NCBI GenBank assembly: GCA_965248435.1
Contig: OZ252100.1
Span: 64,001-128,000, forward strand
Reading direction: 5' to 3'
Length of the DNA stretch: 64,000 nt
DNA from: Candidatus Latescibacterota bacterium
GTDB taxonomy: Bacteria > Latescibacterota > UBA2968 > GCA-2709665
Positions 23,724-38,852 of this stretch are shown piece after piece. The translations under genes were made by a program, and so were the position numbers. How positions within the stretch are numbered: position 1 is the first letter of the stretch; each line of letters begins with the position of its first letter. The notes beneath the pieces were generated by a model. The model saw only the letters and a list, made by a program, of their open reading frames with translations. It was not told where the DNA came from and made no database searches.

Positions 23724-23752
23724 TTGCTGGTTAGGACGGATTGGATTATACT
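23724..23752 (+). promoter_or_regulatory. sigma70-type promoter of the dtxR1-feoAB operon
   Basis: TTGCTG-17 bp-TATACT. Confidence 0.6.
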
Positions 23753-23761
23753 ACTAACAGA

Positions 23762-23779
23762 TGTTTTATTAATAAAACA
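23762..23779. promoter_or_regulatory. Perfect 18-bp palindromic operator
   Basis: TGTTTTATTAATAAAACA just downstream of the -10 box in a GC-rich genome. Confidence 0.75.
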
Positions 23780-23812
23780 CACCGCATGCTTCCCAAACCG
23801 CGGGGATGGGCC

Positions 23813-24343
23813 ATGACTACTTCAGATGTGTGGAAGGCTTTCGAGGAGAACGAGATAACCCATAGCGTGGCGCATCACCTTGCTGCCATTAGAGATCTGT
23901 CTCAGCAGCACGGATATGCGAGGGTCTCAGACGTCGCCAGGTATCTCGACATTACCCGGGGGAGTGCCTCCCTTACGCTCAAGGCACTGAAGCAGAGAAA
24001 CTATGTGCTGGAGGACCTAAACAAGCACCTGAGGCTTTCGGAAGACGGACAGCGCGTGGTCGACGTGGTGATGGCCTCACGGGCCATCGTCCGAAAGTTC
24101 TTGCGAGATGTCTTGCACGTTGAAGAGAAACAGGCCGAGATCGATGCCTGTAAGGTCGAGCATCTCCTGAGCGTGGAGACAGGAGAAAAGCTGCTGCATT
24201 TCGTCAGGTTTCTGATGTCCGAGGCACCGATCCCTGAGCGCTTCCTGGAGGCCTTTTGGGGCGAGAAGGAAATCTGCCACGACATAGAAGATTGTCCCAT
24301 CTGCGAAGAAGAATGCCTTCTCCACCTGCACGTGGAATCTTAA
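23813..24343 (+). CDS. DtxR/IdeR-family regulator with a C-terminal 4-Cys tail
   Basis: wHTH (ARVSDVARYLDITRGSAS), DACKVEH motif, tail CHDIEDCPICEEEC; no FeoA/SH3 domain. Confidence 0.88.
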   Translation: MTTSDVWKAFEENEITHSVAHHLAAIRDLSQQHGYARVSDVARYLDITRGSASLTLKALKQRNYVLEDLNKHLRLSEDGQRVVDVVMASRAIVRKFLRDVLHVEEKQAEIDACKVEHLLSVETGEKLLHFVRFLMSEAPIPERFLEAFWGEKEICHDIEDCPICEEECLLHLHVES

Positions 24344-24382
24344 AGGCGTTGGGAAGGAATTGGTTTCAGAGGGGATCTTGCA

Positions 24383-24697
24383 ATGCGATATTCACTGATG
24401 GCGTCCACTCCCCGGAGGCTTCAGAAGTCCGCGGGCCAACCCGAGGACAGAACGCCTCCGGAAACGGTGGCGGAAGGCCCGCTGACGACCTGGCCAAAGG
24501 GGAATGAAGGCCGGGTGGTTGAGGTCGGAGGTCTTTCCCGACTTGCAGCCCGACTGCGAGAGCTCGGGGTCGTGCCGGGTGCCAGAATTCGGCTTTTGAG
24601 GACCGGTTGCCCGACGGTTATTCAGGTAGAAGAAGGTCGCTATTGCCTGAGAAAGAAGGATGCAAGCTTGATCAAGGTCAGGCCTAGGAGCTCATGA
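24383..24697 (+). CDS. feoA: Ferrous iron transport protein A
   Basis: RLRELGVVPG...LRKKDA FeoA pattern; overlaps the feoB start; own start uncertain. Confidence 0.82.
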   Translation: MRYSLMASTPRRLQKSAGQPEDRTPPETVAEGPLTTWPKGNEGRVVEVGGLSRLAARLRELGVVPGARIRLLRTGCPTVIQVEEGRYCLRKKDASLIKVRPRSS

Positions 24698-26931
24698 GCA
24701 ACCCGAACAGTGTGGAAGTAAAGCACCCGCGGAATGAACGAATCAGGACCATTGCCCTGATCGGAAACCCCAATACGGGTAAGACGACCCTCTTCAATGC
24801 CCTCACCGGGCTCTCCCAGAGGGTCGGGAACTACCCGGGGGTTACGGTCGAACGTCGTGCGGGGCCGCTCAAGCTTAATGGGGAAACGGTCGAGCTGCTG
24901 GACCTGCCGGGCACTTACAGCCTCGCGGCAAATTCGCCGGACGAAATGATTGTCGCTGACGTCCTTCTGGGTCATCAGGCGGGTGAATCAGATGTGGACG
25001 CCGTCGTGGTCATCGTGGATGCCGCAAACCTGAGGCGGAATCTCTACCTGGTCTCTCAGGTGATGGAGTTCGGAATCCGTACAGTCATTGCCCTGAATAT
25101 GGTCGACCTCGCCGAGTCCGCCGGAATTCGTGTTGATCCAGAGCGCCTGTCCGAGCGGATCGGGATCCCGGTGGTTCCCATCTGTGCGAACAAGAAGCGG
25201 GGACTCGATGACTTGCGACACGGCCTTTCCAAGACCCTTTCGGGCCAAATAGATCGTTCCGGATCTGACCTGTCTCGATTCCTGGGTCCGCTGGGCGAGC
25301 AGGTCAAGGCGTTGAGGGAGGAGGTCAACCGGTCAAAGAATGGGCAGGCCGGAAATGTGTCGGAGGTCGAGTTGTATCGCGCCGTCGTGGACGAAGGCGG
25401 CTACGCGGAGAAGCGCATCGTCGACACGCTCGGGCCCGAAGTTGCGCGAAAAGTGACCGGAATCCGGTCGAAGCTGCAGGCGGACCGACCCCTGTCAACC
25501 CTCGAAACGGAATCCCGCTATGCCTGGATCGACCGGACCATCTCGGACGCGCTCTCCCGGCCTCCGATGCTTCAGACAAGCCTGTCAGACCGGATCGATC
25601 GATTCCTGACGCACCGCATCTTCGGAACGATTGCGTTTGCCGTTATCATGGGGATCGTTTTTCAGTCCATCTACGCGTGGGCCCTTCCTTTGATGGACGG
25701 AATCGAGACACTGTTTTCAGAGTTGGGCCAAGCTGCGGCCTCGTTCCTTCCCGAAGGGGCGATCCAATCCCTGGTCGTAGATGGGGTGATCGCTGGCGTG
25801 GGGAGTGTGGTCGTGTTCCTCCCGCAAATCGCGATCCTCTTTTTCTTTCTTGCGCTACTGGAAGGATGCGGATACATGTCTCGTGCGGCTCTGCTTATGG
25901 ACCGCATGTTCAGGTGGTGTGGACTGTCCGGTAAATCGTTCGTCCCGATGATCTCCAGCTTTGCGTGTGCCATTCCCGGGATTATGGCCACACGGACGAT
26001 AGACGACCGCCGAAGCCGGCTGCTGACGATCCTGGTCGCGCCTCTGATGAGCTGTTCGGCCCGACTTCCGGTCTACACGCTTTTGATCGCGGCGTTTATC
26101 CCCCGCGAAAGCATTCTCGGTGGCTGGATCGGCATCCAAGGACTTACGTTGTTTGCGATGTATTGCGTCGGTATCGGAGTGGCCATTCCTGTGGCCTGGA
26201 TCTTGAAGAAGAGCCTGTTGGCCGGAGAATCATTACCCTTTGTCATGGAACTCCCGTCATACAAATGGCCCGATTCGAGGACGACCTACCTGCGAGTTTA
26301 CCTGAAAGTCAAAGCATTCGTCACCCGCGCTGGCACGATCATCCTCTCGGCGGCAGTCGTGATGTGGGCGTTGGCCTACTTTCCCCGTTCGGATCGAATC
26401 GAGGAGACGTTTCGAGCGGCACAAGAAACGGTCAGGCTCAACCAGGTGGGGGAAGTCCAGGCGAGCGCGCTTGCAGCACTAGAGGCTCAGATGAGCGCGG
26501 AGTTCCTTGAGCAGAGCCTGCTTGGCCGTGCCGGTCGCTTTGTAGAACCGGCCGTGCGGCCGTTGGGGTGGGACTGGCGAATCGGTATGGCTGCAATCGC
26601 CTCCTTCCCCGCTCGTGAAATCGTCGTTGCCTCCCTGGGGACGATCTTCAGCGTGGGCAGCGACGTGGACGAGACGTCGCAGACGCTGCGGGATGTGATG
26701 CGGCAGGCCGTAAGGGCCGATGGGACCCCACTGTTCACGATTCCGGTCGCCCTCTCGATTATGGTCTTTTTCGCCCTGTGCGCACAATGCGCGGCCACCC
26801 TGGCGGTGATGCAGCGTGAGACCGGGTCCTGGCGGTGGCCGATCTTTGCGTTCACCTACATGACGGGTCTGGCCTACCTGGGGGCATTCGTCACCTACCA
26901 GGCAACCACGGCCCTGGGGTGGGGAGGCTAG
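24694..26931 (+). CDS. feoB: Ferrous iron transport protein B (full length)
   Basis: GNPNTGKT, NYPGVT, DLPG and NMVD G-motifs; gate domains (FACAIP, MSCSARLP, MELP). Confidence 0.95.
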   Translation: MSNPNSVEVKHPRNERIRTIALIGNPNTGKTTLFNALTGLSQRVGNYPGVTVERRAGPLKLNGETVELLDLPGTYSLAANSPDEMIVADVLLGHQAGESDVDAVVVIVDAANLRRNLYLVSQVMEFGIRTVIALNMVDLAESAGIRVDPERLSERIGIPVVPICANKKRGLDDLRHGLSKTLSGQIDRSGSDLSRFLGPLGEQVKALREEVNRSKNGQAGNVSEVELYRAVVDEGGYAEKRIVDTLGPEVARKVTGIRSKLQADRPLSTLETESRYAWIDRTISDALSRPPMLQTSLSDRIDRFLTHRIFGTIAFAVIMGIVFQSIYAWALPLMDGIETLFSELGQAAASFLPEGAIQSLVVDGVIAGVGSVVVFLPQIAILFFFLALLEGCGYMSRAALLMDRMFRWCGLSGKSFVPMISSFACAIPGIMATRTIDDRRSRLLTILVAPLMSCSARLPVYTLLIAAFIPRESILGGWIGIQGLTLFAMYCVGIGVAIPVAWILKKSLLAGESLPFVMELPSYKWPDSRTTYLRVYLKVKAFVTRAGTIILSAAVVMWALAYFPRSDRIEETFRAAQETVRLNQVGEVQASALAALEAQMSAEFLEQSLLGRAGRFVEPAVRPLGWDWRIGMAAIASFPAREIVVASLGTIFSVGSDVDETSQTLRDVMRQAVRADGTPLFTIPVALSIMVFFALCAQCAATLAVMQRETGSWRWPIFAFTYMTGLAYLGAFVTYQATTALGWGG

Positions 26932-26932
26932 G

Positions 26933-27109
26933 ATGGTGATGGACTGGCAGTCGATCCTGGTTATCGTCATCGCAGCGGCGTGCGCATTCTGGCTGGTCAG
27001 ACAGTTCCTTCGGCCCTTCCTTGTGACTGAACAGGATGCAGGATGCGGCGGGGCTGCGCCGTCGTCCAGGCCAGGGCAGCTCCTTGAAGTGTTGCCTCCG
27101 GATGAGTAG
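26933..27109 (+). CDS. Small FeoB-associated membrane peptide (58 aa; not in the ORF track)
   Basis: MVMDWQSILVIVIAAACAFWLVRQFLRPF...GCGG...; RBS GGAGG; starts 2 bp after the feoB stop and is followed by a terminator. Confidence 0.7.
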   Translation: MVMDWQSILVIVIAAACAFWLVRQFLRPFLVTEQDAGCGGAAPSSRPGQLLEVLPPDE

Positions 27110-27152: not shown

Positions 27153-27188
27153 GGGCGATCCCTCTGTTGCGGGGCGATCGCCCTTTTT
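27153..27188 (+). terminator. Intrinsic terminator of the first feo operon
   Basis: GGGCGATC...GATCGCCC followed by TTTTT. Confidence 0.75.
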
Positions 27189-27236
27189 GTTTTTGTGTTT
27201 TCTTTAAGAAGGGTTGCATTTTTGAAGAAAACAGAC

Positions 27237-27279
27237 TTGACATTTCTCTCTCTAAAACATATTTTTAGCTATTCCTAAA
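27237..27279 (+). promoter_or_regulatory. sigma70 promoter with an overlapping DtxR/MntR-type box
   Basis: TTGACA-17-TATTTT; TTTAG-CTATTC-CTAAA at 27264-27279. Confidence 0.8.
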
Positions 27280-27337
27280 CTTTTTTTCGTTAATGCCTCA
27301 GATTTCGGACTACGTCTGATCAGCCCAAGGGGAGGTC

Positions 27338-28564
27338 ATGAAAACACATTCCTTGCACACAGGAGGAGGACCGGTCAGAGTGGTGATCCTCTTGCTCTGC
27401 GCGGTTTGCTTAACGACCTGCGGCAAGCTGCTGACGAGCGCGCCCGAGGAGGGGGAGACCCTCGACGGCACTCTGGACATTTCGCCAGCCCTCAATTCCT
27501 CGTTCGCAAGAGGGGATGAGCAGTTTGAGCGGGTCTTCACGATCGCGGACGGCCTGGGTCCGATCTTCAATCAGCCCAGTTGCGAAACCTGCCATCCAGG
27601 CGATGGTCGAGGAACCCCATTCACCACGTTAACGCGCTTCAGTGTTGCGGGTGACCTGGTCCCCAAGCTAGGAGGGGGTCAGCTCCAGGACAAGGCCATC
27701 CCTGGTGTGTCGCCAGAGGTCCTTCCGCCCGGTGCCGAGACTTCTGTAAGGATGCCTCCTCCCGTCTTCGGAATGGGGCTGGTCGAAGGCATCCCGGTCG
27801 AGACCCTGGTTGCACTGTCAGATCCGGATGATGCGGACGGAGATGGGATCTCTGGCCAGATCAACTGGGTGCAGGCGGCCGATTTTGTGCCCCCAGAGGT
27901 TGTCGGGTCCGGACCTGGCCTAGCCGTGGGCCGGTTCGGTCGGAAGGCCAATGTCTCCTCGCTTCTTGAGCAGGTGGTGAACGCATACCGTGAGGATATG
28001 GGCATAACAACCGACTTTGCGCCAGACGAGGTCTTACACCCTCAGGCCGGGGATATGACGATTGGTGACAACGTCCCTGACCCTGAGGTGCCGGCTTCAG
28101 AGGTCAATGATGTGATCATGTACGTACGTCTGCTCTCGCCACCCAATCGGGGCGAAATCACGGATGCGGTCCGCCGGGGGGAGGCCCATTTTACGGAAAT
28201 CGGGTGTGCCAGTTGTCACATTCCCACACTAAAGACTGGACCCAATCCGATCCCTGCTCTGGACCGGGTCGATGCCAACCTCTACTCTGACCTACTCCTG
28301 CACGACATGGGCTCGGAGCTGGCCGATGGTCGTTCGGATGGGACGGCTAACGGGTTCGAGTGGAAGACCCCGCCGCTGATGGGGCTGCGCCTGGCTGCGG
28401 ACGCACTTGGGGGAACAGCCTTCTTGCTCCACGACGGCCGGACTTCTGACCTTGCGGACGCGATTCAACTGCACGGGGGAGAAGCGGAGGCGTCTCGCAA
28501 CCGGTTTCTGAGTCTTTCTGAAGAGCAACGTCAGGACCTGATCGCATTCCTGATGTCCCTGTAG
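27338..28564 (+). CDS. Di-haem oxidoreductase (DHOR family), probable lipoprotein
   Basis: GLGPIFN, CETCH, CASCH, GRFGRKA, YSDLLLHDMG, LLHDGR and HGGEA motifs; hydrophobic signal ending in Cys. Confidence 0.9.
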   Translation: MKTHSLHTGGGPVRVVILLLCAVCLTTCGKLLTSAPEEGETLDGTLDISPALNSSFARGDEQFERVFTIADGLGPIFNQPSCETCHPGDGRGTPFTTLTRFSVAGDLVPKLGGGQLQDKAIPGVSPEVLPPGAETSVRMPPPVFGMGLVEGIPVETLVALSDPDDADGDGISGQINWVQAADFVPPEVVGSGPGLAVGRFGRKANVSSLLEQVVNAYREDMGITTDFAPDEVLHPQAGDMTIGDNVPDPEVPASEVNDVIMYVRLLSPPNRGEITDAVRRGEAHFTEIGCASCHIPTLKTGPNPIPALDRVDANLYSDLLLHDMGSELADGRSDGTANGFEWKTPPLMGLRLAADALGGTAFLLHDGRTSDLADAIQLHGGEAEASRNRFLSLSEEQRQDLIAFLMSL

Positions 28565-28571
28565 CCACGAA

Positions 28572-29000
28572 ATGGGCGCAAGGAAGATCTCCCGACGTCG
28601 TTTTTTGTCCACTTCCGGATGCCTGACGGTGGGCTTACCGCTTTGGTCGTGTGCGACCGTTTCGATCTACCGTACGACCGTCGTAGGGGACCGCATTTCT
28701 CTTGATCGTTCGCGCTTTCCCGAGCTGAGCTCACCGGGTGGAGGGATTATGCTGCAGGCCAGGGAACTGGAGGACCCGCTCCTTCTGGTCAACGATGGCG
28801 GGAGACTTCAGGCCTACTCAGCCGTCTGTACGCACCTCAGGTGCAACGTGCGGCCGTCGGGCGGGTTCCTTGTCTGCCCGTGTCACGGCTCGACATATAA
28901 TCTAGGGGGAGGCGTCACGCGGGGTCCGGCAGCGAGGGCGCTCCCAAAGTTCGAGACGCAGACCATCGGAGACCGAGTAGAGATTGTCATTCCTCGATAG
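28572..29000 (+). CDS. Tat-exported Rieske [2Fe-2S] protein
   Basis: SRRRFL twin-arginine motif; CTHLRC and CPCHGS boxes. Confidence 0.92.
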   Translation: MGARKISRRRFLSTSGCLTVGLPLWSCATVSIYRTTVVGDRISLDRSRFPELSSPGGGIMLQARELEDPLLLVNDGGRLQAYSAVCTHLRCNVRPSGGFLVCPCHGSTYNLGGGVTRGPAARALPKFETQTIGDRVEIVIPR

Positions 29001-29009
29001 GAGAGAAGG

Positions 29010-30182
29010 ATGTACCGATTCGTTTTGGTCTTGTTTTTAGCGGGTCTATTTGCGGGGAATGTCCGCGCAGAGGATGAACCCGAAGAGACGCCGAGGCCCT
29101 TCGTGAAGGGTGGGGCGTACGACAAGCCGCATCTTTTCAAGCATTCAACCGGTAAGGCTTCGTTCGGCGGTTATGCCGAGGCCCACTTTCGTTATGAACA
29201 GGAAGAAGGGGTCACGGAAGAGCTCACCTTTGTTCCGATGCGGTTCAATCTGTTCTTTCATTCTGCTGTCTCTGAGCGGTTCAGGATGGCTGCCGAACTC
29301 GAGTTTGAAGAGGGGACAGAAGAGATCCTCCTGGAGCTCGCGATTCTGGACTTCGAGCTTCACTCATCGCTGTCGCTCCGCGCAGGCATGATCCTGACTC
29401 CGCTCGGCAAGTTCAACCTCGCCCACGACAGTCCGGCCAACAAGGTGACCGACCGACCCCTGGTCAGTACTCAGATTATCCCGACCGCGCTCTCTGAACC
29501 CGGAATGGGAGTCTTCGGCGCCTTCTACCCGTCTCCCCAATCGCGGGTTACCTACGAGCTCTACGCCGTGAACGGCCTTACCGCAGGATTGATCGAGGAG
29601 AGTGACGCGGGCACGCGCATTGCCAAGGGGCGGGGTAACATAGAAGACAACAACAACCGCCCCGCCTTCGCTGGGAGAATCGGGATCAGTCTCGTTCCAG
29701 AGGCAGAGGTGGGCTTCTCTTGGCACACGGGCCAATACAATGAATCAAAAGCGGAAGATCTGGTAGTGGACGATGCACGACAGTTGAGGATCCTGGCAGT
29801 GGACGCAGAATACCGCCGGGGACTCTACGAGTTCGTCGGTGAGTATGCCCGGGCCAGTATCGATCTTCCTCCGAGCCTGGGGGGGTCGATCTTTGCAGAA
29901 AAGCAGCAGGGCTTTTACGTTCAGGTAAGCGCCGAGTTCCTGCGGAATGTGATCCCGACCGTACCCGGGTCTTTCTTCCAGGGTGTCGTGAGATACGATC
30001 GCATCGATTTTGATACCGATCTGGAAGGAGATGACCAGACCCGCCTGACGCTGGGTCTCAACTTCCGTCCTACCGAAGATTCCGTTTTCAAGCTGAACTA
30101 TCTCTACAACCGTCACGATGACAGGAACAACGTCCGGGCCCTTGGCGCAGGCATCCTGTTCAGTGTTGCGACCTATTTTTGA
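29010..30182 (+). CDS. Outer-membrane beta-barrel/porin
   Basis: Sec signal, amphipathic strands, TDRP motif, C-terminal SVATYF; RBS GGAG. Confidence 0.75.
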   Translation: MYRFVLVLFLAGLFAGNVRAEDEPEETPRPFVKGGAYDKPHLFKHSTGKASFGGYAEAHFRYEQEEGVTEELTFVPMRFNLFFHSAVSERFRMAAELEFEEGTEEILLELAILDFELHSSLSLRAGMILTPLGKFNLAHDSPANKVTDRPLVSTQIIPTALSEPGMGVFGAFYPSPQSRVTYELYAVNGLTAGLIEESDAGTRIAKGRGNIEDNNNRPAFAGRIGISLVPEAEVGFSWHTGQYNESKAEDLVVDDARQLRILAVDAEYRRGLYEFVGEYARASIDLPPSLGGSIFAEKQQGFYVQVSAEFLRNVIPTVPGSFFQGVVRYDRIDFDTDLEGDDQTRLTLGLNFRPTEDSVFKLNYLYNRHDDRNNVRALGAGILFSVATYF

Positions 30183-30204
30183 GCTGAAGTAAATCCTGGC
30201 AGCA

Positions 30205-30236
30205 AAAAGGCCCCTGAGAATCCTCAGGGGCCTTTT
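30205..30236. terminator. Bidirectional terminator
   Basis: AAAAGGCCCCTGAG / CTCAGGGGCCTTTT between convergent genes. Confidence 0.88.
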
Positions 30237-33117: not shown

Positions 33118-33160
33118 TTGACTTTCACCCAACGGCTGACTATTTTTAGTTAAGCCTAAA
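33118..33160 (+). promoter_or_regulatory. sigma70 promoter with an overlapping DtxR/MntR-type box
   Basis: TTGACT-17-TATTTT; TTTAG-TTAAGC-CTAAA at 33145-33160, same offset as the site at 27237. Confidence 0.8.
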
Positions 33161-33183: not shown

Positions 33184-34224
33184 ATGGTGACTGTGAATAT
33201 GGGTGAACACGGGACACTCCTGATTACGGTCTTGCTGATGACGGCCGTTGGCCTGATTTTCTGGCCGCAGCGGGGTTATTTCTGGCGCTTGCAGCGCGTT
33301 GGCCGGACGGTCGAGCGCATCCTGATTGAAGATGCGCTCAAGCATTTTTACAATTTCGAATATCGCAGACAAGTCGTTACGGTGGAGTCTCTCGCGGGGT
33401 CATTGGAGATTTCTCGCAACCGGGCGGTCGAGCTGCTTGTCCGGACCCAGACCCTCGGGTTGGTTCAGTCCGATGAGGGTAGACCGCGCTTGACCCCGGA
33501 AGGCCGCAACTATGCTCTTCGGGTTATTCGAGTGCATCGACTCTGGGAACACCATCTGGCCGAGGAAACCGGAACGGCCGCCTCTGAGTGGCACAGTTCT
33601 GCCGAGTATCGGGAGCACGACATCACGGAGAGCGAAGCAGACCACCTGGCCGAACAGATGGGAGACCCCGCGTTCGATCCTCACGGCGATCCCATTCCAA
33701 CGGCCACGGGTGATATTGCGCCACGCCGCGGGCAACCGCTCAACGCGCTCACTGTCGGTGAGCTGGCGACCATCGTTCATATCGAGGACGAACCCGAGAC
33801 CATCTATGCTCAGCTCGTTGCAGATGGAATCCATTTAGGTATACGGGTGGAGGTCTCGGAAATCTCACCCGAGCGTATCCGACTCTGGGCAGATGGGGAG
33901 GAGTGCGTATTGGCGCCTGTCGTGGCTGCAAACGTCTTTGTTGACCCCCTCCCCAGGGATCAGGAAATGGAGGGTCCGTTTGAAACGCTGACCTCTCTTT
34001 CGGCTGGAGAAAGGGGCAAGGTGCTCCTCATATCCAGAGCGTGCCGGGGCCTCGAGCGTCGGCGTCTGATGGATCTCGGCATTTTGCCTGGCACGGTGAT
34101 TGAATCGGAAATGATGAGTCCCAGTGGAGACCCTACTGCCTATCGCGTGCGTGGCGCCTTGATCGCACTGCGCAAGGAACAGGCCAGTCAGATTCGCATT
34201 GAAAAACTCGTGGAGGTAACCTGA
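33184..34224 (+). CDS. Membrane-anchored DtxR/MntR-like protein with two FeoA domains
   Basis: N-terminal hydrophobic helix, [25 protein letters not shown]3 domain and a terminal FeoA ([11 protein letters not shown]...GDP...ALRK). Confidence 0.85.
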
Positions 34225-35057
34225 TGGCTGAAGATGTATCTCCAAGCGCTTGTGAGGCCTGCCCGTCTCATCATGCGGGCAACCTGATCAAACTTGGCGT
34301 CGACATGGAGAACTGGGATTACGTTGTCGCTCTGGCCGGGAACCCGAACACCGGTAAGAGCACGGTCTTCAACAATCTGACAGGACTCCGACAACACACG
34401 GGAAACTGGCCGGGTAAGACCGTGGCCCGGGCCGAGGGAGGATTCGAGTCCGGGGGAAAACGGTATAAACTGGTCGACCTGCCGGGCACTTATTCTTTGC
34501 TTTCAACGAGCTACGACGAAGAAGTTGCACGCGATTTCATTCTGTTCGGGCGCCCCGACGTCACCGTTGTTGTGGTGGACGCCACGCGCCTGGAACGCAA
34601 CCTCAACCTGGTGCTGCAGGTGTTGGAAATTACGGACCGGGCCGTGGTTTGCCTCAATCTTATAGATGAAGCCAAACGGCACGGCCTCACGCTGGATGAC
34701 CGCCGCCTGGCACGGGATCTGGGGGTGCCGGTTGTTCCCACCGCTGCGCGTCAGGGAGAGGGCATTCCGCTGTTGATCAAAACCCTCAGCGAGGTCGCTG
34801 CCGGGCAGACAGTCTGCAGGCCCCATCGGATTCAGAGCGAAACGCCCGCACTCAAGCGTGCGATCAACACGCTTGTCCAAAAGATTGAATCTCAGTTCTC
34901 CGGACTGCCGAATACGCGGTGGGTGGCCTTGCGGTTGCTGGAGGGAGATCGGCGTATTATCGACGCCGTCCAATCGGGGGAGTTGGGTGATCTCAGTGTG
35001 CCGAGCCTGTCAGATGTCGGCGATGAACTGCAAGAGAGGTTGGAGGTGGTCTCATGA
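34224..35057 (+). CDS. Split FeoB, N-terminal GTPase subunit
   Basis: [22 protein letters not shown]; N-terminal CEACPSHH. Confidence 0.9.
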
Positions 35058-36481
35058 ACACGAAAAGCACTCCCGAAGACCTGCTTCCCGTTGCGGCCGC
35101 GTTGCGCTGGGAAGTCGGTGGAAACTTTCACGATTCTCTCATGGAAGCCATCTATACAGACGCCGCTCGGATTGCGGACCGGTCCGTGACCCGAAGTGAC
35201 ACGCAGCCGCGCTTCGACCTGGATCGCACGATCGACCGGTTGGTGACCAGCCGCTGGCTGGGGTTTCCCATCATGCTGCTGATGCTTGCAGTGGTATTCT
35301 GGGTGACGATCGAGGGTGCGAATGTGCCTTCTGCCATGCTGGCGACCTTGTTGATCGATACATTCCATCCCGTTTTGAAGCAAGCTTCCGCCGCCATGGG
35401 GGTCCCGTGGTGGCTTGATGGGGTGGTCCTCGACGGAATGTACCTCGCCATGGCGTGGGTGATCGCCGTGATGCTGCCGCCGATGGCAATCTTCTTTCCG
35501 TTGTTTACGCTGCTGGAGGATTTCGGATACCTTCCCAGGGTGGCCTTCAACCTGGACAATCTCTTCAAGAAAGCGGGTGCGCACGGCAAGCAGGCCTTGA
35601 CGATGAGTATGGGATTCGGGTGTAACGCGGCGGCCATTGTCGCCACGCGCGTGATCGACAGCCCAAGGGAGCGCCTGATTGCCATCATCACGAACAATTT
35701 CGCGCTTTGCAACGGACGCTGGCCGACACAGATCCTCATCGCGACGATCTTTATCGGCGGGTTGGCCCCCGCCCATCTTGCCGGATTGGTGTCCGCAGGG
35801 GCGGTGGTGTCCGTAGCGGTCCTGGGCATTGTGCTTTCGTTTGTCGTTTCCTGGGGGCTTTCAAACACGGTCCTGAAAGGGGAGGCCTCGGCATTCAGCC
35901 TGGAGCTTCCTCCCTATCGCCCTCCCCGAATCCTTCAAACGCTTTACACTTCTATGATCGATCGTACCCTTATTGTGCTCTGGCGCGCTGTCTATTTCGC
36001 AATTCCTGCCGGGTTTGTTATCTGGACGGTTTCCAACGTTCATATCGGCGGGAACAGCCTGGCTGTGATCTTCATGGATTGGAGCAACCCGTTCGGTCTT
36101 TTGATCGGGTTGAATGGTGTGATTTTGCTGGCCTATATCGTTGCAATTCCGGCCAATGAAATCGTCATTCCGACGATTCTCATGCTCACGGTCTTGAGTG
36201 CAGGGCTGGGCGGTGTTGGGGGAGGCGCGGGTGTCATGTTCGAGCTTGATTCCGAGACGGCAACCGCGGCCATCTTTCACGCAGGGGGATGGAGCTTGCT
36301 GACCGCCGTCAATCTGATGTTGTTCAGTCTGGTTCACAATCCCTGCTCGACAACCCTTTACACTATCTACAAGGAAACCGGAAGCGCCAAGTGGACGACG
36401 GTGTCTGCGCTTCTCCCGATTGGGATGGGATTCGTCCTCTGCTTCCTGGTTGCGGAGGTCTGGGGACTTTTCTCGGGATAG
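35054..36481 (+). CDS. Split FeoB, membrane (gate) subunit
   Basis: [26 protein letters not shown] and PCSTT motifs; ATGA overlap with its own RBS GGAGGT. Confidence 0.9.
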
Positions 36482-36515
36482 ATATCCGGACTCAAAACCC
36501 TTCGGAGTCGAGACC

Positions 36516-37193
36516 ATGCTGAGCCAGGCCGCGCAAGATTACTTGAAGGAAATCTACAAGATCCAGAAGGCGAGCGATCCCAACGTCTCGGTTAATACCT
36601 CTGCGATTGCAGAGAAGATGGATGTTGCGGCGGCCTCCGTGACGAACATGGTCAAGAAGCTGGCAGCGTTGAAGCTGGTTCGCCATACCCCCTACCAGGG
36701 CGTCGAACTAACGTCAGCGGGTGTGCAGATCGCCCTGGAGATTCTCAGACATCACCGCCTGTTAGAGCTCTATCTGGCGAAGACGCTTGGGTATGGATGG
36801 GATCGGGTGGATGCCGAGGCGGATAAACTGGAACACGTGATCTCCGAGGAGTTCGAAGATCGAATCGATGAAGCACTGGGCCATCCGACGACGGATCCCC
36901 ACGGGTCGCCCATACCCACCAAAGAGGGGAGTATCCCAGAAGAGAATGTATTCCCGCTCTCAGGCGTCAAGATGGACCAGCGTGCCGTTATCCGGCAGGT
37001 GAGTGATCAGAGTCCCGAAATGCTACGTTACATGGAATCCCTGGGGCTAACGCCTGAAGTCAGGGTGGAGGTCCTGGAGCAGGCCCCCTTTGGCGGACCG
37101 CTGCTCGTGAGGGTAAACGGCGGCGAGAAGCATTCCCTCGGGCTGGAAGTGGCACGGCACATCTACGTCTCCCTTGAATCCACCGGATCCTAA
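36516..37193 (+). CDS. MntR/SirR-type DtxR-family repressor with an SH3/FeoA domain
   Basis: QDYLKEIY, RHHRLLELYL, EADKLEH, DPHGSPIP; ATG 36516 after GGAG. Confidence 0.92.
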   Translation: MLSQAAQDYLKEIYKIQKASDPNVSVNTSAIAEKMDVAAASVTNMVKKLAALKLVRHTPYQGVELTSAGVQIALEILRHHRLLELYLAKTLGYGWDRVDAEADKLEHVISEEFEDRIDEALGHPTTDPHGSPIPTKEGSIPEENVFPLSGVKMDQRAVIRQVSDQSPEMLRYMESLGLTPEVRVEVLEQAPFGGPLLVRVNGGEKHSLGLEVARHIYVSLESTGS

Positions 37194-37199
37194 TACCGT

Positions 37200-38852
37200 T
37201 TGCGCGTCAGAGTGATCAACCTTCTCATTCCTCCGGTTTTTATCGCAATCCTGCTGGTTCCGGTCAATGTGACGGGTCAGCAGGCGCCCCGCCCGGACCG
37301 CGTTCACCTCCCGCTTTCTCCAGTCGAAGAACACGAAATCTATTGCCGAGCGTGTGCCCTGTTCGACCGGGACGCGCTTTTGCCGGGTAGCCCTTATCTC
37401 CTGGACCGAGCGATCTGCGGGACCCCTGCGGTCATGAGTTTGGCTTTGAACTGGCCCAGGCTGAGCAAGGCCACGCGAGAGGCCTTCGCCTACTTGTTCC
37501 AGAGGCCAAGCCGCCAGCGGACGGTTACCAGCCCCGGCGGGAAGTTCAAGATTCATTTCGATGAGAACGGTAGCAACGCGGTCAGTCTGATCGATCAGAA
37601 TTCGAACGGTGTGTCAGACTATGTGGATGAAGTTGCCAGGACCTTCGACGCTGCGTGGGATTTGCAGATCGGCGAATTGGGGTATGATCCGCCCCTTTCG
37701 GATGGGGACGAATTCTTCGATGTTTACATCAAGAATCTGGCTCCCCAGTTCGTATATGGATTTACCTGGCCTGAGTCTTTTGGCGGATCGGTTACGCCCA
37801 GCTATATGGAGATCGACAACGACTATGGTGAAAGTATCTACGCGTCCAGGGGGCTCAATGGGCTGCACGTAACCGCCGCGCACGAATTCTTCCACGCGAT
37901 TCAATTTGCTTATTATGCAGACCTGAGATCTGCGGGGTGGTGGCACGAATCGACAGCGACGTGGATTGAAGAAGTCGCCTATACCGATGTCAACGATTAC
38001 TATCAGTACATTCCGTTTTTCTTCGATTCTCCCACGGCACCTCTCGATCGTAACAATCAGTTCAGCAACTTTCCTGTGTTCGGCACTGCCGTATACCCGC
38101 TTCACCTGGATCGAGTTTACGGGAAGGCCTCCATACGGAGAACCTGGGAGGTTTTGAGATCTCGAGATCGGTCGCCCTATCCTGAAAGCTTGGGAGACCT
38201 TGACGCGGGAATGCCTCTGGGCGGTTTCAAGGATGTGCTTCCCCGGTTTGCTGTGTGGAATTATTTCATCGGGAGCAGGAGTCGTTCCGGGTACTATCCC
38301 GAAGCCAGCTTCTATCCCGCAGTTGCGACAAAGACTGTGCTTCCAGCGTTGGGCCTTCCTGTGTCCGGGACAAGCGAGGTGGATCACCTGGCGATGGATT
38401 ACATTCAGGTGCCCATCACGACGCGTTCTGGAGGCCTGCGAGCCTCCTTCGTCCTTGACGCAGATGCGACCTGGACACTTCTCGTGCTGTTGATCAGCGA
38501 TACCGGCCACGAGATCCTTCGGCCCCGGGTTACCACGAAAATAGAAATACCGCAGATCGACCGGCTCAATGAGATCGTGTTCATCCCGATCGTGACGTCA
38601 CTCCAAGGAAGCAGGTTTGACGCCGACTATACGATCTCTCTGGATCCCGGGATTGCGATTGCTTCGGACTTCGTGGGTGACTTCGACCAGAACGGACAGG
38701 TCTGGTTTCCAGACTTTCTTACGTTTGCCACCTCCTTCGAAAAAGATGCAGAGGACCCGGGCTACGATGAAACGACTGATTTGGACGGAAACGGGAAGAC
38801 AGAATTTCTTGATTTCTTGATCTTCGTCCGGCACTTCGGTGAGCCATCGTGA
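37200..38852 (+). CDS. Secreted zinc metallopeptidase-like protein with a C-terminal EF-hand/dockerin-like domain
   Basis: Signal peptide, TAAHEFFHAIQ...WWHESTA, and a DFDQNG / DLDGNG Ca-binding pair. Confidence 0.8.
   Translation: MRVRVINLLIPPVFIAILLVPVNVTGQQAPRPDRVHLPLSPVEEHEIYCRACALFDRDALLPGSPYLLDRAICGTPAVMSLALNWPRLSKATREAFAYLFQRPSRQRTVTSPGGKFKIHFDENGSNAVSLIDQNSNGVSDYVDEVARTFDAAWDLQIGELGYDPPLSDGDEFFDVYIKNLAPQFVYGFTWPESFGGSVTPSYMEIDNDYGESIYASRGLNGLHVTAAHEFFHAIQFAYYADLRSAGWWHESTATWIEEVAYTDVNDYYQYIPFFFDSPTAPLDRNNQFSNFPVFGTAVYPLHLDRVYGKASIRRTWEVLRSRDRSPYPESLGDLDAGMPLGGFKDVLPRFAVWNYFIGSRSRSGYYPEASFYPAVATKTVLPALGLPVSGTSEVDHLAMDYIQVPITTRSGGLRASFVLDADATWTLLVLLISDTGHEILRPRVTTKIEIPQIDRLNEIVFIPIVTSLQGSRFDADYTISLDPGIAIASDFVGDFDQNGQVWFPDFLTFATSFEKDAEDPGYDETTDLDGNGKTEFLDFLIFVRHFGEPS

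Follow-up and report, generated by a model that had tools for sequence, protein, structure and literature searches.

A conserved operon of a di-haem lipoprotein, a Rieske lipoprotein and an outer-membrane porin, probably serving the acquisition of manganese or iron

Within a 64,000-nucleotide stretch of a Candidatus Latescibacterota genome (contig OZ252100.1, positions 64,001 to 128,000; below, the window, in whose positions all coordinates are given), three genes form an operon (27237-30236) that encodes a di-haem c-type lipoprotein of the DHOR/DUF1111 family, a Rieske [2Fe-2S] lipoprotein exported by twin-arginine translocation (Tat) and an outer-membrane porin. The trio is conserved as a unit in at least three phylum- or class-level groups, and the operator over its promoter is shared with metal-uptake operons that encode a manganese-type DtxR regulator. 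We conclude that the trio is probably an envelope module for acquiring manganese or iron. More specifically, we see an even chance that it is a starvation-induced module in which the pore admits metal and the redox state of that metal is changed, probably by reduction, for divalent importers.

The three genes are co-directional on the forward strand, with DHOR at 27338-28564 (408 amino acids, aa), the Rieske gene at 28572-29000 (142 aa) and the porin gene at 29010-30182 (390 aa), separated by gaps of 7 and 9 nt. They are preceded by a sigma-70-like promoter (TTGACA, 17 nt, TATTTT; 27237-27265, + strand) that agrees with the consensus at 10 of 12 positions, and the layout TTGAC..N17..TAT(A)TTTTTAG is found again 5' of DHOR in related loci. 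On the upstream side a GC-rich hairpin followed by a U run (27153-27195, + strand) forms an intrinsic terminator closing the preceding operon of mntR, feoA, feoB and a small open reading frame (ORF); the hairpin itself (about 27153-27184) has a minimum free energy (MFE) of -22.6 kcal/mol and a z-score of -3.8, with 0 of 200 shuffles equally stable. On the downstream side a 14-bp stem with A and U runs either side (30205-30234) provides a bidirectional intrinsic terminator between the porin gene and a convergent ZntA-like gene (MFE -27.3 kcal/mol, z -5.1, again 0 of 200 shuffles). A terminator consensus scan reported the hairpin at 27153 and not the one at 30205. With a promoter of its own and hairpins on both sides, the trio is therefore an autonomous unit, a single-copy operon transcribed as one. 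This agrees with the first-pass annotation, which had described a three-gene unit with its own promoter and terminator encoding a DHOR lipoprotein with two CxxCH motifs, a Tat-exported Rieske protein and an outer-membrane barrel; the identity of the products is borne out by the Pfam matches, motifs and barrel model described below.

The first product matches the Pfam family DHOR (PF06537) with an E-value of 1.5e-65 and 222 bits against a cut-off of 22, strongly over profile positions 214-499 and weakly over 41-83. Both haem motifs, C82xxC85H86 and C290xxC293H294, are invariant across 146 aligned family members, and the signal peptide ends at a lipobox cysteine (Cys28) that is invariant in 17 orthologues. 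It is the only DHOR gene of the genome and represents a shorter (~400 aa), collinear subfamily of a family that counts 6133 representatives at E <= 0.001. Searched as a single sequence, the protein gave no match among PDB sequences, and its AlphaFold2 (AF2) model, built from 17 sequences, was too poor for a fold search (predicted local distance difference test score, pLDDT, 48). The profile of the 146 members did match PDB sequences, namely the di-haem cytochrome c peroxidases 3o5c (4.8e-6) and 1iqc (8e-4), hydrazine synthase gamma (5c2v_C, 1.5e-5) and, weakly, MauG (0.11); the matched segments are collinear and take in the two haem motifs as well as an HDG motif near the C-terminus. DHOR is thus a remote relative of the di-haem cytochrome c peroxidases and MauG, and the Pfam label of the family, 'putative peroxidase', is in line with this kinship.

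The second product matches the Rieske family PF00355 (E 2.8e-12). Across 25 aligned sequences the lipobox cysteine (Cys27), the cluster ligands (C86, H88, C102 and H105) and the disulfide cysteines (C91 and C104) are invariant, giving the CxH...CxxH ligand pattern and the cysteine pair of bc1/b6f-type Rieske proteins. Ser107 is likewise invariant, position 109 is Tyr in the window protein and Phe in most orthologues, and the Tat motif, RRRF in the window protein, is nearly invariant as RR-x-F. The protein database (entry P0005) holds an 83-aa product that starts at an internal Met and omits the region 28572-28748. Because the N-terminus carries the conserved Tat motif and lipobox, we take the 142-aa form as the real one and the entry as truncated by the gene caller. 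Among PDB sequences, two Rieske proteins of 110 aa match best, 8hn2_A and 5cxm_A (5cxm with an E-value of 1e-11). 5CXM is PetC3 of Synechocystis, described in part of PMC10172866 as a periplasmic, lipid-anchored Rieske protein; its midpoint potential is given as +135 mV and its function as unknown in the passages concerned (PMC10172866; PMC12341915).

The first-pass annotation had also remarked on the absence of cytochrome b and imelysin from the unit. Indeed, no cytochrome b family appears among the Pfam matches of the 16 neighbourhood proteins, operon included. For imelysin (Peptidase_M75, PF09375) the absence goes further, with no match among these 16 proteins nor anywhere in the 97.5%-complete genome. 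DUF1513, the beta-propeller partner in imelysin-DUF1111 operons, is absent from the Pfam matches of the 16 proteins; the genome was not searched for PF07433.

The third product reaches 21.2 bits against Pfam Porin_O_P, just over the cut-off of 20.9, and its sequence finds only chance-level matches among PDB sequences. Its AF2 model has 16 strands (pLDDT 71, predicted template-modelling score 0.74), and a Foldseek search with this model returned OprP (2o4v_A) and OprO (4rjw) as top matches, with a template-modelling (TM) score of 0.61, E of about 3e-13 and 11-12% identity. Of 131 positions conserved at 90% or more, 25 are D/E and 11 are K/R; the faces predicted to line the lumen from strand periodicity, not coordinates, carry 11 acidic residues, 7 basic residues and 2 His. 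Loop L3, the long loop after strand 5, is highly conserved and almost invariant, and identity averaged over the alignment columns reaches 68% in the barrel, compared with 65% in DHOR. The mainly acidic conserved residues would suit the passage of cations. In a relative (G054, contig C35; G numbers denote genomes and L numbers loci of our survey), the Rieske and barrel genes are separated by an additional ORF of 387 aa (L077:4821-5981, - strand). Its product starts with a signal peptide, carries one CxxCH close to the N-terminus, is porin-like over the rest of its length and ends in Phe. It matches no Pfam family and resembles the Cyc2-type fused cytochrome-porins; its atlas neighbours are unnamed clusters, and the nearest clusters with a name contain 'Porin_O_P'.

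Conservation of the trio was followed in 61 genomes (60 relatives and the window's own), in 168 genomes of the phylum and in 80 metagenome loci, of which 73 have enough upstream DNA, 39 at least 1900 nt downstream and 16 long flanks. All 17 loci with an orthologue-level Rieske match in the 61 genomes fit the trio, with the limits that one contig begins at the Rieske gene (L015) and one locus has an extra gene between Rieske and barrel (L014). Orthologue-level barrels occur in about 50 of the 168 phylum genomes, and the 30 best barrel loci comprise 24 in the order DHOR-Rieske-barrel, two in the order DHOR-barrel-Rieske, one without the Rieske gene and three cut by the edge of the locus or contig. 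A scan of genome contigs found the trio in 11 of 15 loci, labelled Latescibacterota, Gemmatimonad-, Ignavibacteriales and others. Outside the phylum the barrel is present in 4 of 12 genomes of another phylum (that of G171) and in 25 of 251 genomes of a further class (that of G169), and 22 of the 27 loci returned from these two groups hold the trio, even at 30-36% barrel identity. The unit thereby spans the Latescibacterota, an Ignavibacteria-like class and a further small phylum, so that the trio is indeed kept together elsewhere, as the first-pass annotation had proposed to establish by a neighbourhood survey. Gemmatimonadota and Marinimicrobia appear as well among the NCBI labels of related proteins and loci. 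Such organism labels of metagenome-assembled genomes are unreliable for phyletic spread: an 'uncultured Gemmatimonadaceae' genome (L025; G168 = G101) groups in the phylum of the window genome.

The metagenome loci refine this picture. Among the 39 informative ones, 29 read DHOR-Rieske-barrel, nine DHOR-barrel and one DHOR-Rieske without a barrel match, so that the barrel stands beside DHOR in 38 and the Rieske gene in 30. With nine of the 39 lacking the Rieske gene, the conserved core is therefore DHOR and the barrel, not a Rieske/di-haem pair, with the Rieske protein a frequent accessory. In one relative (L030:9932-11122) the DHOR gene is broken into two ORFs, behind which lie a ZnuA-family gene and MntR3; Rieske and barrel genes are both lacking, and the locus may be a decayed copy. 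A literature search, supplements not covered, found no published description of a DHOR-Rieske-porin unit. What appears to be new is this arrangement; DHOR-based clusters with a proposed role in metal uptake are already known.

The -10 element of the trio promoter is overlapped by an exact copy of the palindrome TTTAG-N6-CTAAA (TTTAGCTATTCCTAAA, 27264-27279), the DtxR-type box that the first-pass annotation had placed there. A second copy (TTTAGTTAAGCCTAAA, 33145-33160) covers the -10 of a promoter-like site (TTGACT, 17 nt, TATTTT; site and box together 33118-33160, + strand) before an operon for a Feo importer downstream, called Feo2 below. These two are the only matches in the window when one mismatch is allowed, and both are exact; two or more matches arose in 10 of 100 shuffles. 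The whole genome (5.67 Mb) holds three exact boxes, two of them at the trio and Feo2 promoters, and eight copies of the core TTAG-N6-CTAA. The third exact box (G000 C1:610072) lies in GC-rich sequence beside a hairpin-like stretch and was taken as chance. The eight core sites compare with about 48 expected from base composition, so the palindrome is under-represented; five relatives (G001, G004, G038, G040 and G060) have 1-5 exact boxes per genome, against 3-13 for a reversed control pattern.

In these five complete relatives, the 11 exact boxes fall at three trio promoters, at three promoters of twin-FeoA/FeoB (Feo2) operons, at the head of a ZnuA-family operon (G040), about 4.4 kb upstream of MntR3 on the same strand, and between two ferritin-like genes (G040); the other three are intragenic and were taken as chance. 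The site between the ferritin-like genes (L198, G040:C1:4567304-4570319) separates divergent genes and lies 11 nt before one of them; the two genes might also belong to the regulon, unless the site is fortuitous. Before Feo2 orthologues the box is kept in L023 and L034 and in G001, G038 and G060, and 5' of DHOR the whole arrangement of TTGAC, about 17 nt and TAT(A)TTTTTAG-N6-CTAAAAA is conserved in most loci of related genomes. The metagenome loci extend this observation: 34 of the 73 loci have the core no more than 300 nt ahead of DHOR, where 0.006 per search interval are expected, and elsewhere in these loci it occurs 13 times in 698,889 nt, ten of these sites lying at most 75 nt before a gene for MntR3 or for a DtxR protein with twin FeoA domains. 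Besides the regulator, the box-marked regulator operons encode either the twin-FeoA DtxR protein and a split FeoB or a binding protein of ZnuA/TroA type. Across related genomes and the 80 metagenome loci, the box marks almost only the trio and operons with a manganese-type DtxR regulator, and defines a small regulon.

The manganese-type regulator in question, MntR3, is the best candidate for the protein that binds the box, because in fused operons that begin with MntR3 the box stands in front of that very gene; MntR3 would then be autoregulated. The support for binding is the association of the box with the promoters of MntR3-encoding operons. MntR1, the DtxR-family protein of the upstream Feo operon, is an unlikely regulator of the box: its own promoter has another palindrome and no TTAG box, and its metal site differs. 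In the window, MntR3 (~36516-37193, with a FeoA/SH3 domain) ends the Feo2 operon (33184-37193, + strand; Pfam and NCBIfam matches), following the twin-FeoA DtxR gene (33184-34224) and the genes for the GTPase part (34224-35057) and the membrane part (35054-36481) of FeoB. At two positions where DtxR and IdeR have Met and Cys, MntR3 has Asp, a difference that distinguishes manganese from iron sensors. Its best PDB matches are 5zr4, then 8pvt, then SloR and ScaR, and 8pvt is the D. radiodurans manganese sensor DR2539 according to a portion of bioRxiv 10.1101/2024.02.12.579695. The twin-FeoA protein has the architecture of P. gingivalis PgMntR, which a section of PMC4805248 reports as unusual, naming feoB2 (PG1043) as the manganese transport gene. 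As MntR3 resembles manganese sensors, the twin-FeoA protein matches PgMntR and the MntR1 site differs, and as it is a DtxR homologue of manganese type that accompanies the box most consistently, manganese is favoured over iron as the metal of the regulon.

The trio is furthermore repeatedly found in physical linkage with importers. MntR3, the twin-FeoA DtxR gene, both parts of FeoB, DHOR, Rieske and barrel follow each other in one direction in four loci (L031, L093, L113 and L116), and a fifth locus (L090) ends at DHOR and shows the same fused order as far as it extends. Similar orders are seen in L082, L120, L127, L166-L168 and L175, L050 reads DHOR-Rieske-barrel-ZnuA-MntR3, and the arrangement of the window is found again in L034, L079 and L080. 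Other upstream neighbours include FecCD (in L024, and at about 2.8 kb in L097) and genes for VIT1, a multicopper oxidase and a ZIP transporter (L083). A Pfam scan of 112 flanking ORFs at unlinked loci returned mostly unrelated housekeeping genes. MntR3 is present in 46 of the 50 trio genomes, and the four that lack it have a completeness of 75-86%.

A paralogue of the barrel, 42% identical over its full length, occurs in many relatives; the window's own genome has no such unit. Eight of its contexts were examined (L068 and L070-L076, from genomes G024, G038, G060, G057, G070, G069, G108 and G027). In all eight the paralogous barrel is followed by an FMN_bind protein, and in five by a PepSY_TM/BNR protein as well (L068, L070, L073, L074 and L076). 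ApbE is present in one context (L070), FeoB or FeoAB adjoins the unit in four (L070, L071, L072 and L075), and one (L074) includes a regulator of Rrf2 type and a fragment of FTR1. Extracytoplasmic flavin-based and ferric-reducing systems count FMN_bind, PepSY_TM and ApbE proteins among their components. One barrel family is thus coupled to two different periplasmic redox modules, each often beside Feo. Since the paralogous barrel travels with a flavin/PepSY module and often with Feo, this sibling system is the strongest comparative argument that such modules prepare metal for divalent import, and it favours reduction.

In order to rationalise these observations on the molecular level, we propose the following mechanism. 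When metal is plentiful, a manganese-type repressor of the DtxR family, with MntR3 as the candidate, would bind the box and shut off both the trio and its own importer operon; under starvation both would be made. The acidic porin of OprP fold would pass a metal species across the outer membrane, and the di-haem DHOR lipoprotein would change its oxidation state in the periplasm, most likely by reducing Mn(III/IV) or Fe(III) to the divalent state. The Rieske lipoprotein, where present, would carry electrons between the respiratory chain and DHOR, and FeoB-type, ZnuA/TroA-type or other importers would then take up the divalent ion. In general, haem c and Rieske centres are strong enough reductants for species of Mn(III/IV). 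The first-pass annotation had proposed that the porin admits metal and that the Rieske/di-haem pair sets its oxidation state. The synteny, the shared operator, the links to importers and the flavin module of the paralogue speak for the gist of this proposal; its emphasis on the pair gives way to a core of DHOR and barrel.

Several findings weigh against such a mechanism. The unit has no cytochrome b or quinol-binding partner that could supply the Rieske protein with electrons, and the Rieske gene itself is absent from nine of the 39 informative metagenome loci. The detectable relatives of DHOR with a known function are peroxidases, MauG and hydrazine synthase gamma, with no metal reductase among them, and the estimate of an acidic lumen derives from strand periodicity instead of coordinates. 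As to regulation, the box is degenerate before DHOR in a relative of the same genus, and the strict box is absent before DHOR in 39 of 73 metagenome loci. As to context, eight of the 16 long-flank metagenome loci have no metal gene nearby, and among the 168 phylum genomes the twin-FeoA DtxR gene occurs, by a hand tally, in only 25 of the 50 trio genomes and also in 27 of the 118 without the trio. MntR3 is found in 75 of the 118 non-trio genomes as well, so its co-occurrence with the trio discriminates little. This cross-tabulation of the trio with the twin-FeoA DtxR gene rules out an obligate dependence of the trio on the second Feo system. The feoB/mntR linkage anticipated in the first-pass annotation is thus upheld as a frequent fusion or adjacency to Feo, to ZnuA/TroA importers and to manganese-type regulators, and not as an obligatory one.

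Three other explanations have to be weighed on the same evidence. The match of the DHOR profile to di-haem cytochrome c peroxidases, collinear through both haem motifs and HDG, speaks against metal reduction and for a periplasmic peroxidase protecting against oxidative stress, in which DHOR would reduce H2O2 or another small oxidant at one haem with electrons coming from the Rieske protein via the other, and in which induction under manganese starvation would compensate for lost manganese-dependent antioxidant capacity. Bacterial di-haem cytochrome c peroxidases use a small redox donor, and a donor encoded beside the enzyme fits this pattern; moreover, in two loci (L028 and L029) the gene immediately before the trio encodes a secreted Fe/Mn superoxide dismutase, and the exact box between two ferritin-like genes of G040 would also be consistent with a defence function. 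However, a dedicated pore would be superfluous for H2O2, and still no partner is as constant as the barrel, which is present in 38 of 39 loci and as conserved as DHOR; the supposed donor is missing from nine of the 39. The operon is also co-transcribed or co-regulated with metal importers in several lineages, and the company of the paralogous barrel, FMN_bind in eight of eight contexts, PepSY_TM in five and Feo in four, is not that of a peroxidase. Taken together, we consider a peroxidase function unlikely, though a serious rival to metal reduction. The same homology would also suit oxidative uptake after the manner of EfeUOB or of the imelysin-DUF1111 systems, with DHOR oxidising Fe(II) or Mn(II) admitted by the pore, H2O2 or the Rieske protein as the electron sink, and the oxidised ion passed on to a binding protein and a permease whose genes lie elsewhere. 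Parts of PMC3143127 and bioRxiv 10.1101/072470 discuss DUF1111 as a peroxidase akin to EfeB in iron-uptake operons, and the high-potential, disulfide-bearing type of Rieske protein suits an electron acceptor. Nevertheless, imelysin/EfeO was not found in the genome, Ftr1/EfeU is absent from the Pfam matches of the 16 neighbourhood proteins, and the linked importers are of divalent type (FeoB, ZnuA family), which makes oxidative uptake distinctly improbable.

A role in energy metabolism, through respiratory or extracellular electron transfer such as Fe(II) oxidation or metal-oxide respiration, seems to us very improbable. It could appeal to the bc-complex type of the Rieske protein, to the gene that G054 has between Rieske and barrel, whose product joins a single-haem cytochrome to a porin-like barrel, and to a locus (L081) with a multi-haem cytochrome and a PepSY_TM protein upstream. 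It would have to be reconciled, however, with a small single-copy operon under an operator of metal-repressor type that is common to importers, and with a unit that has no cytochrome b, quinol oxidoreductase or terminal oxidase. MtrB-type barrels sheathe a cytochrome, which a 16-strand porin, the fold modelled here, cannot do for one of 40 kDa.

Returning to reductive uptake, it can be sharpened into a dedicated manganese pathway, a version that we regard as speculative and rather doubtful. The porin would admit ligand-bound Mn(III) or oxide-derived manganese, the short DHOR would reduce it to Mn(II) with electrons passing from the quinol pool to the PetC3-like Rieske protein, and uptake by FeoB2 or TroA-type importers would follow under the same manganese-sensing repressor. 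If true, this would give the short DHOR subfamily its first function and PetC3-type Rieske proteins their first partner; the trio and its FMN_bind/PepSY sibling would together establish a family of 'porin plus periplasmic reductase' modules. DHOR/DUF1111 is a large family whose link to iron uptake comes from context only and whose chemistry has not been demonstrated; the trio therefore offers a testable setting for two orphan redox families, with one operator, one candidate regulator, a pore and linked importers. Reductive uptake in general, if it holds, would suggest how uncultured bacteria of sediment and seawater obtain manganese or iron from oxidised pools without siderophores, through a modular design of porin, periplasmic redox protein and divalent importer.

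In the window the trio lies, as the first-pass annotation had it, between two Feo systems. Upstream is an operon (23741-27109, + strand; Pfam/NCBIfam) of the DtxR-family regulator MntR1, FeoA, FeoB and a 58-aa Cys-rich ORF, in which the one-mismatch search of the window found no copy of the TTTAG box. MntR1 (23741-24343) has a His/Cys/Glu/His primary metal site, Arg/Arg/Glu at the positions of the ancillary ligands of DtxR/IdeR and no SH3/FeoA domain, and appears to fit neither the classic MntR nor the DtxR pattern. Just before its likely start lies a perfect 18-bp palindrome (TGTTTTATTAATAAAACA, 23762-23779), part of which is found again before MntR1 orthologues in L026 and L034; it is a candidate for a separate operator of the first Feo operon. 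The 58-aa ORF (26933-27109) follows feoB directly, has a hydrophobic N-terminus and no Pfam or NCBIfam match, and is kept after feoB in L023, L037, L079 and L080. Downstream of the trio, genes for a ZntA-like P-type ATPase and then an ArsR-family regulator lie on the opposite strand, and beyond them begins the Feo2 operon with the twin-FeoA DtxR and split FeoB. MntR3 at its end is followed by a putative HExxH metalloprotease of the MXAN_6640 family (37200-38852), a pairing also seen in L030, L033, L034 and L080.

Among known systems, the operons of the IrpA/IcmP type, in which imelysin (EfeO-like) genes flank DUF1111/DHOR and a DUF1513 gene follows, have the haem family PF06537 in common with the trio. 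DUF1111 is placed with imelysins in proposed iron-uptake operons in parts of PMC3143127 and bioRxiv 10.1101/072470, and as in the trio the location is the envelope and a role in metal uptake is implied by regulation and context; the passages of these two sources that concern the family give no demonstrated function for it. In contrast to those operons, the trio pairs a shorter DHOR with a Rieske lipoprotein and a porin of OprP fold and is probably regulated through a DtxR-type box; a Fur box was not looked for. With EfeUOB and FepABC, which take up ferrous iron in a peroxidase-dependent way, the trio shares the concept of a periplasmic haem enzyme that alters the oxidation state of a metal during uptake. 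EfeB is a DyP-type peroxidase, of a fold different from that of DHOR, and unlike these systems the trio occurs in a genome without EfeO, with no EfeU among the Pfam matches of the neighbourhood and with linked importers of divalent type. The imelysin paper itself, in the part concerned, terms EfeB EfeB-like or DUF1111 (PMC3143127).

In its regulation the trio comes close to the manganese-sensing DtxR regulons (PgMntR-FeoB2, TroR, DR2539 and SloR/ScaR), which likewise have a palindromic operator over the promoter; the regulators linked to the trio resemble these manganese sensors, and in G040 a boxed ZnuA-family operon lies upstream of MntR3. A haem/Rieske/porin unit was not found in the literature searched as a member of such regulons of the TroABCD/MntABC or FeoB2 types. 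PetC3 and the window Rieske protein are alike in being small, in having a Tat signal and a lipid-anchor cysteine and in not being encoded with a cytochrome b, although their sequence similarity is only remote (E 1e-11). Both Ser and Tyr of the motif CPCHGSxY are retained in the window protein; the relevant part of PMC10172866 describes PetC3 as lacking the hydrogen bonds concerned. As to the barrel, it has 16 strands and no CxxCH, which sets it apart from porin-cytochrome conduits of the MtrAB or Cyc2 kind, where a large barrel sheathes a multi-haem protein or is fused to a haem domain; a fusion of this sort is seen only in the additional gene of G054. Its best fold match is with OprP and OprO, the Pseudomonas phosphate and pyrophosphate porins, with Porin_O_P barely above its cut-off. 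OprP has an arginine ladder (according to the title of 2o4v), and the basic Arg/Lys lumen that makes OprP and OprO anion-selective is replaced in the window barrel by conserved residues that are mostly acidic, so that its selectivity is probably the opposite of theirs.

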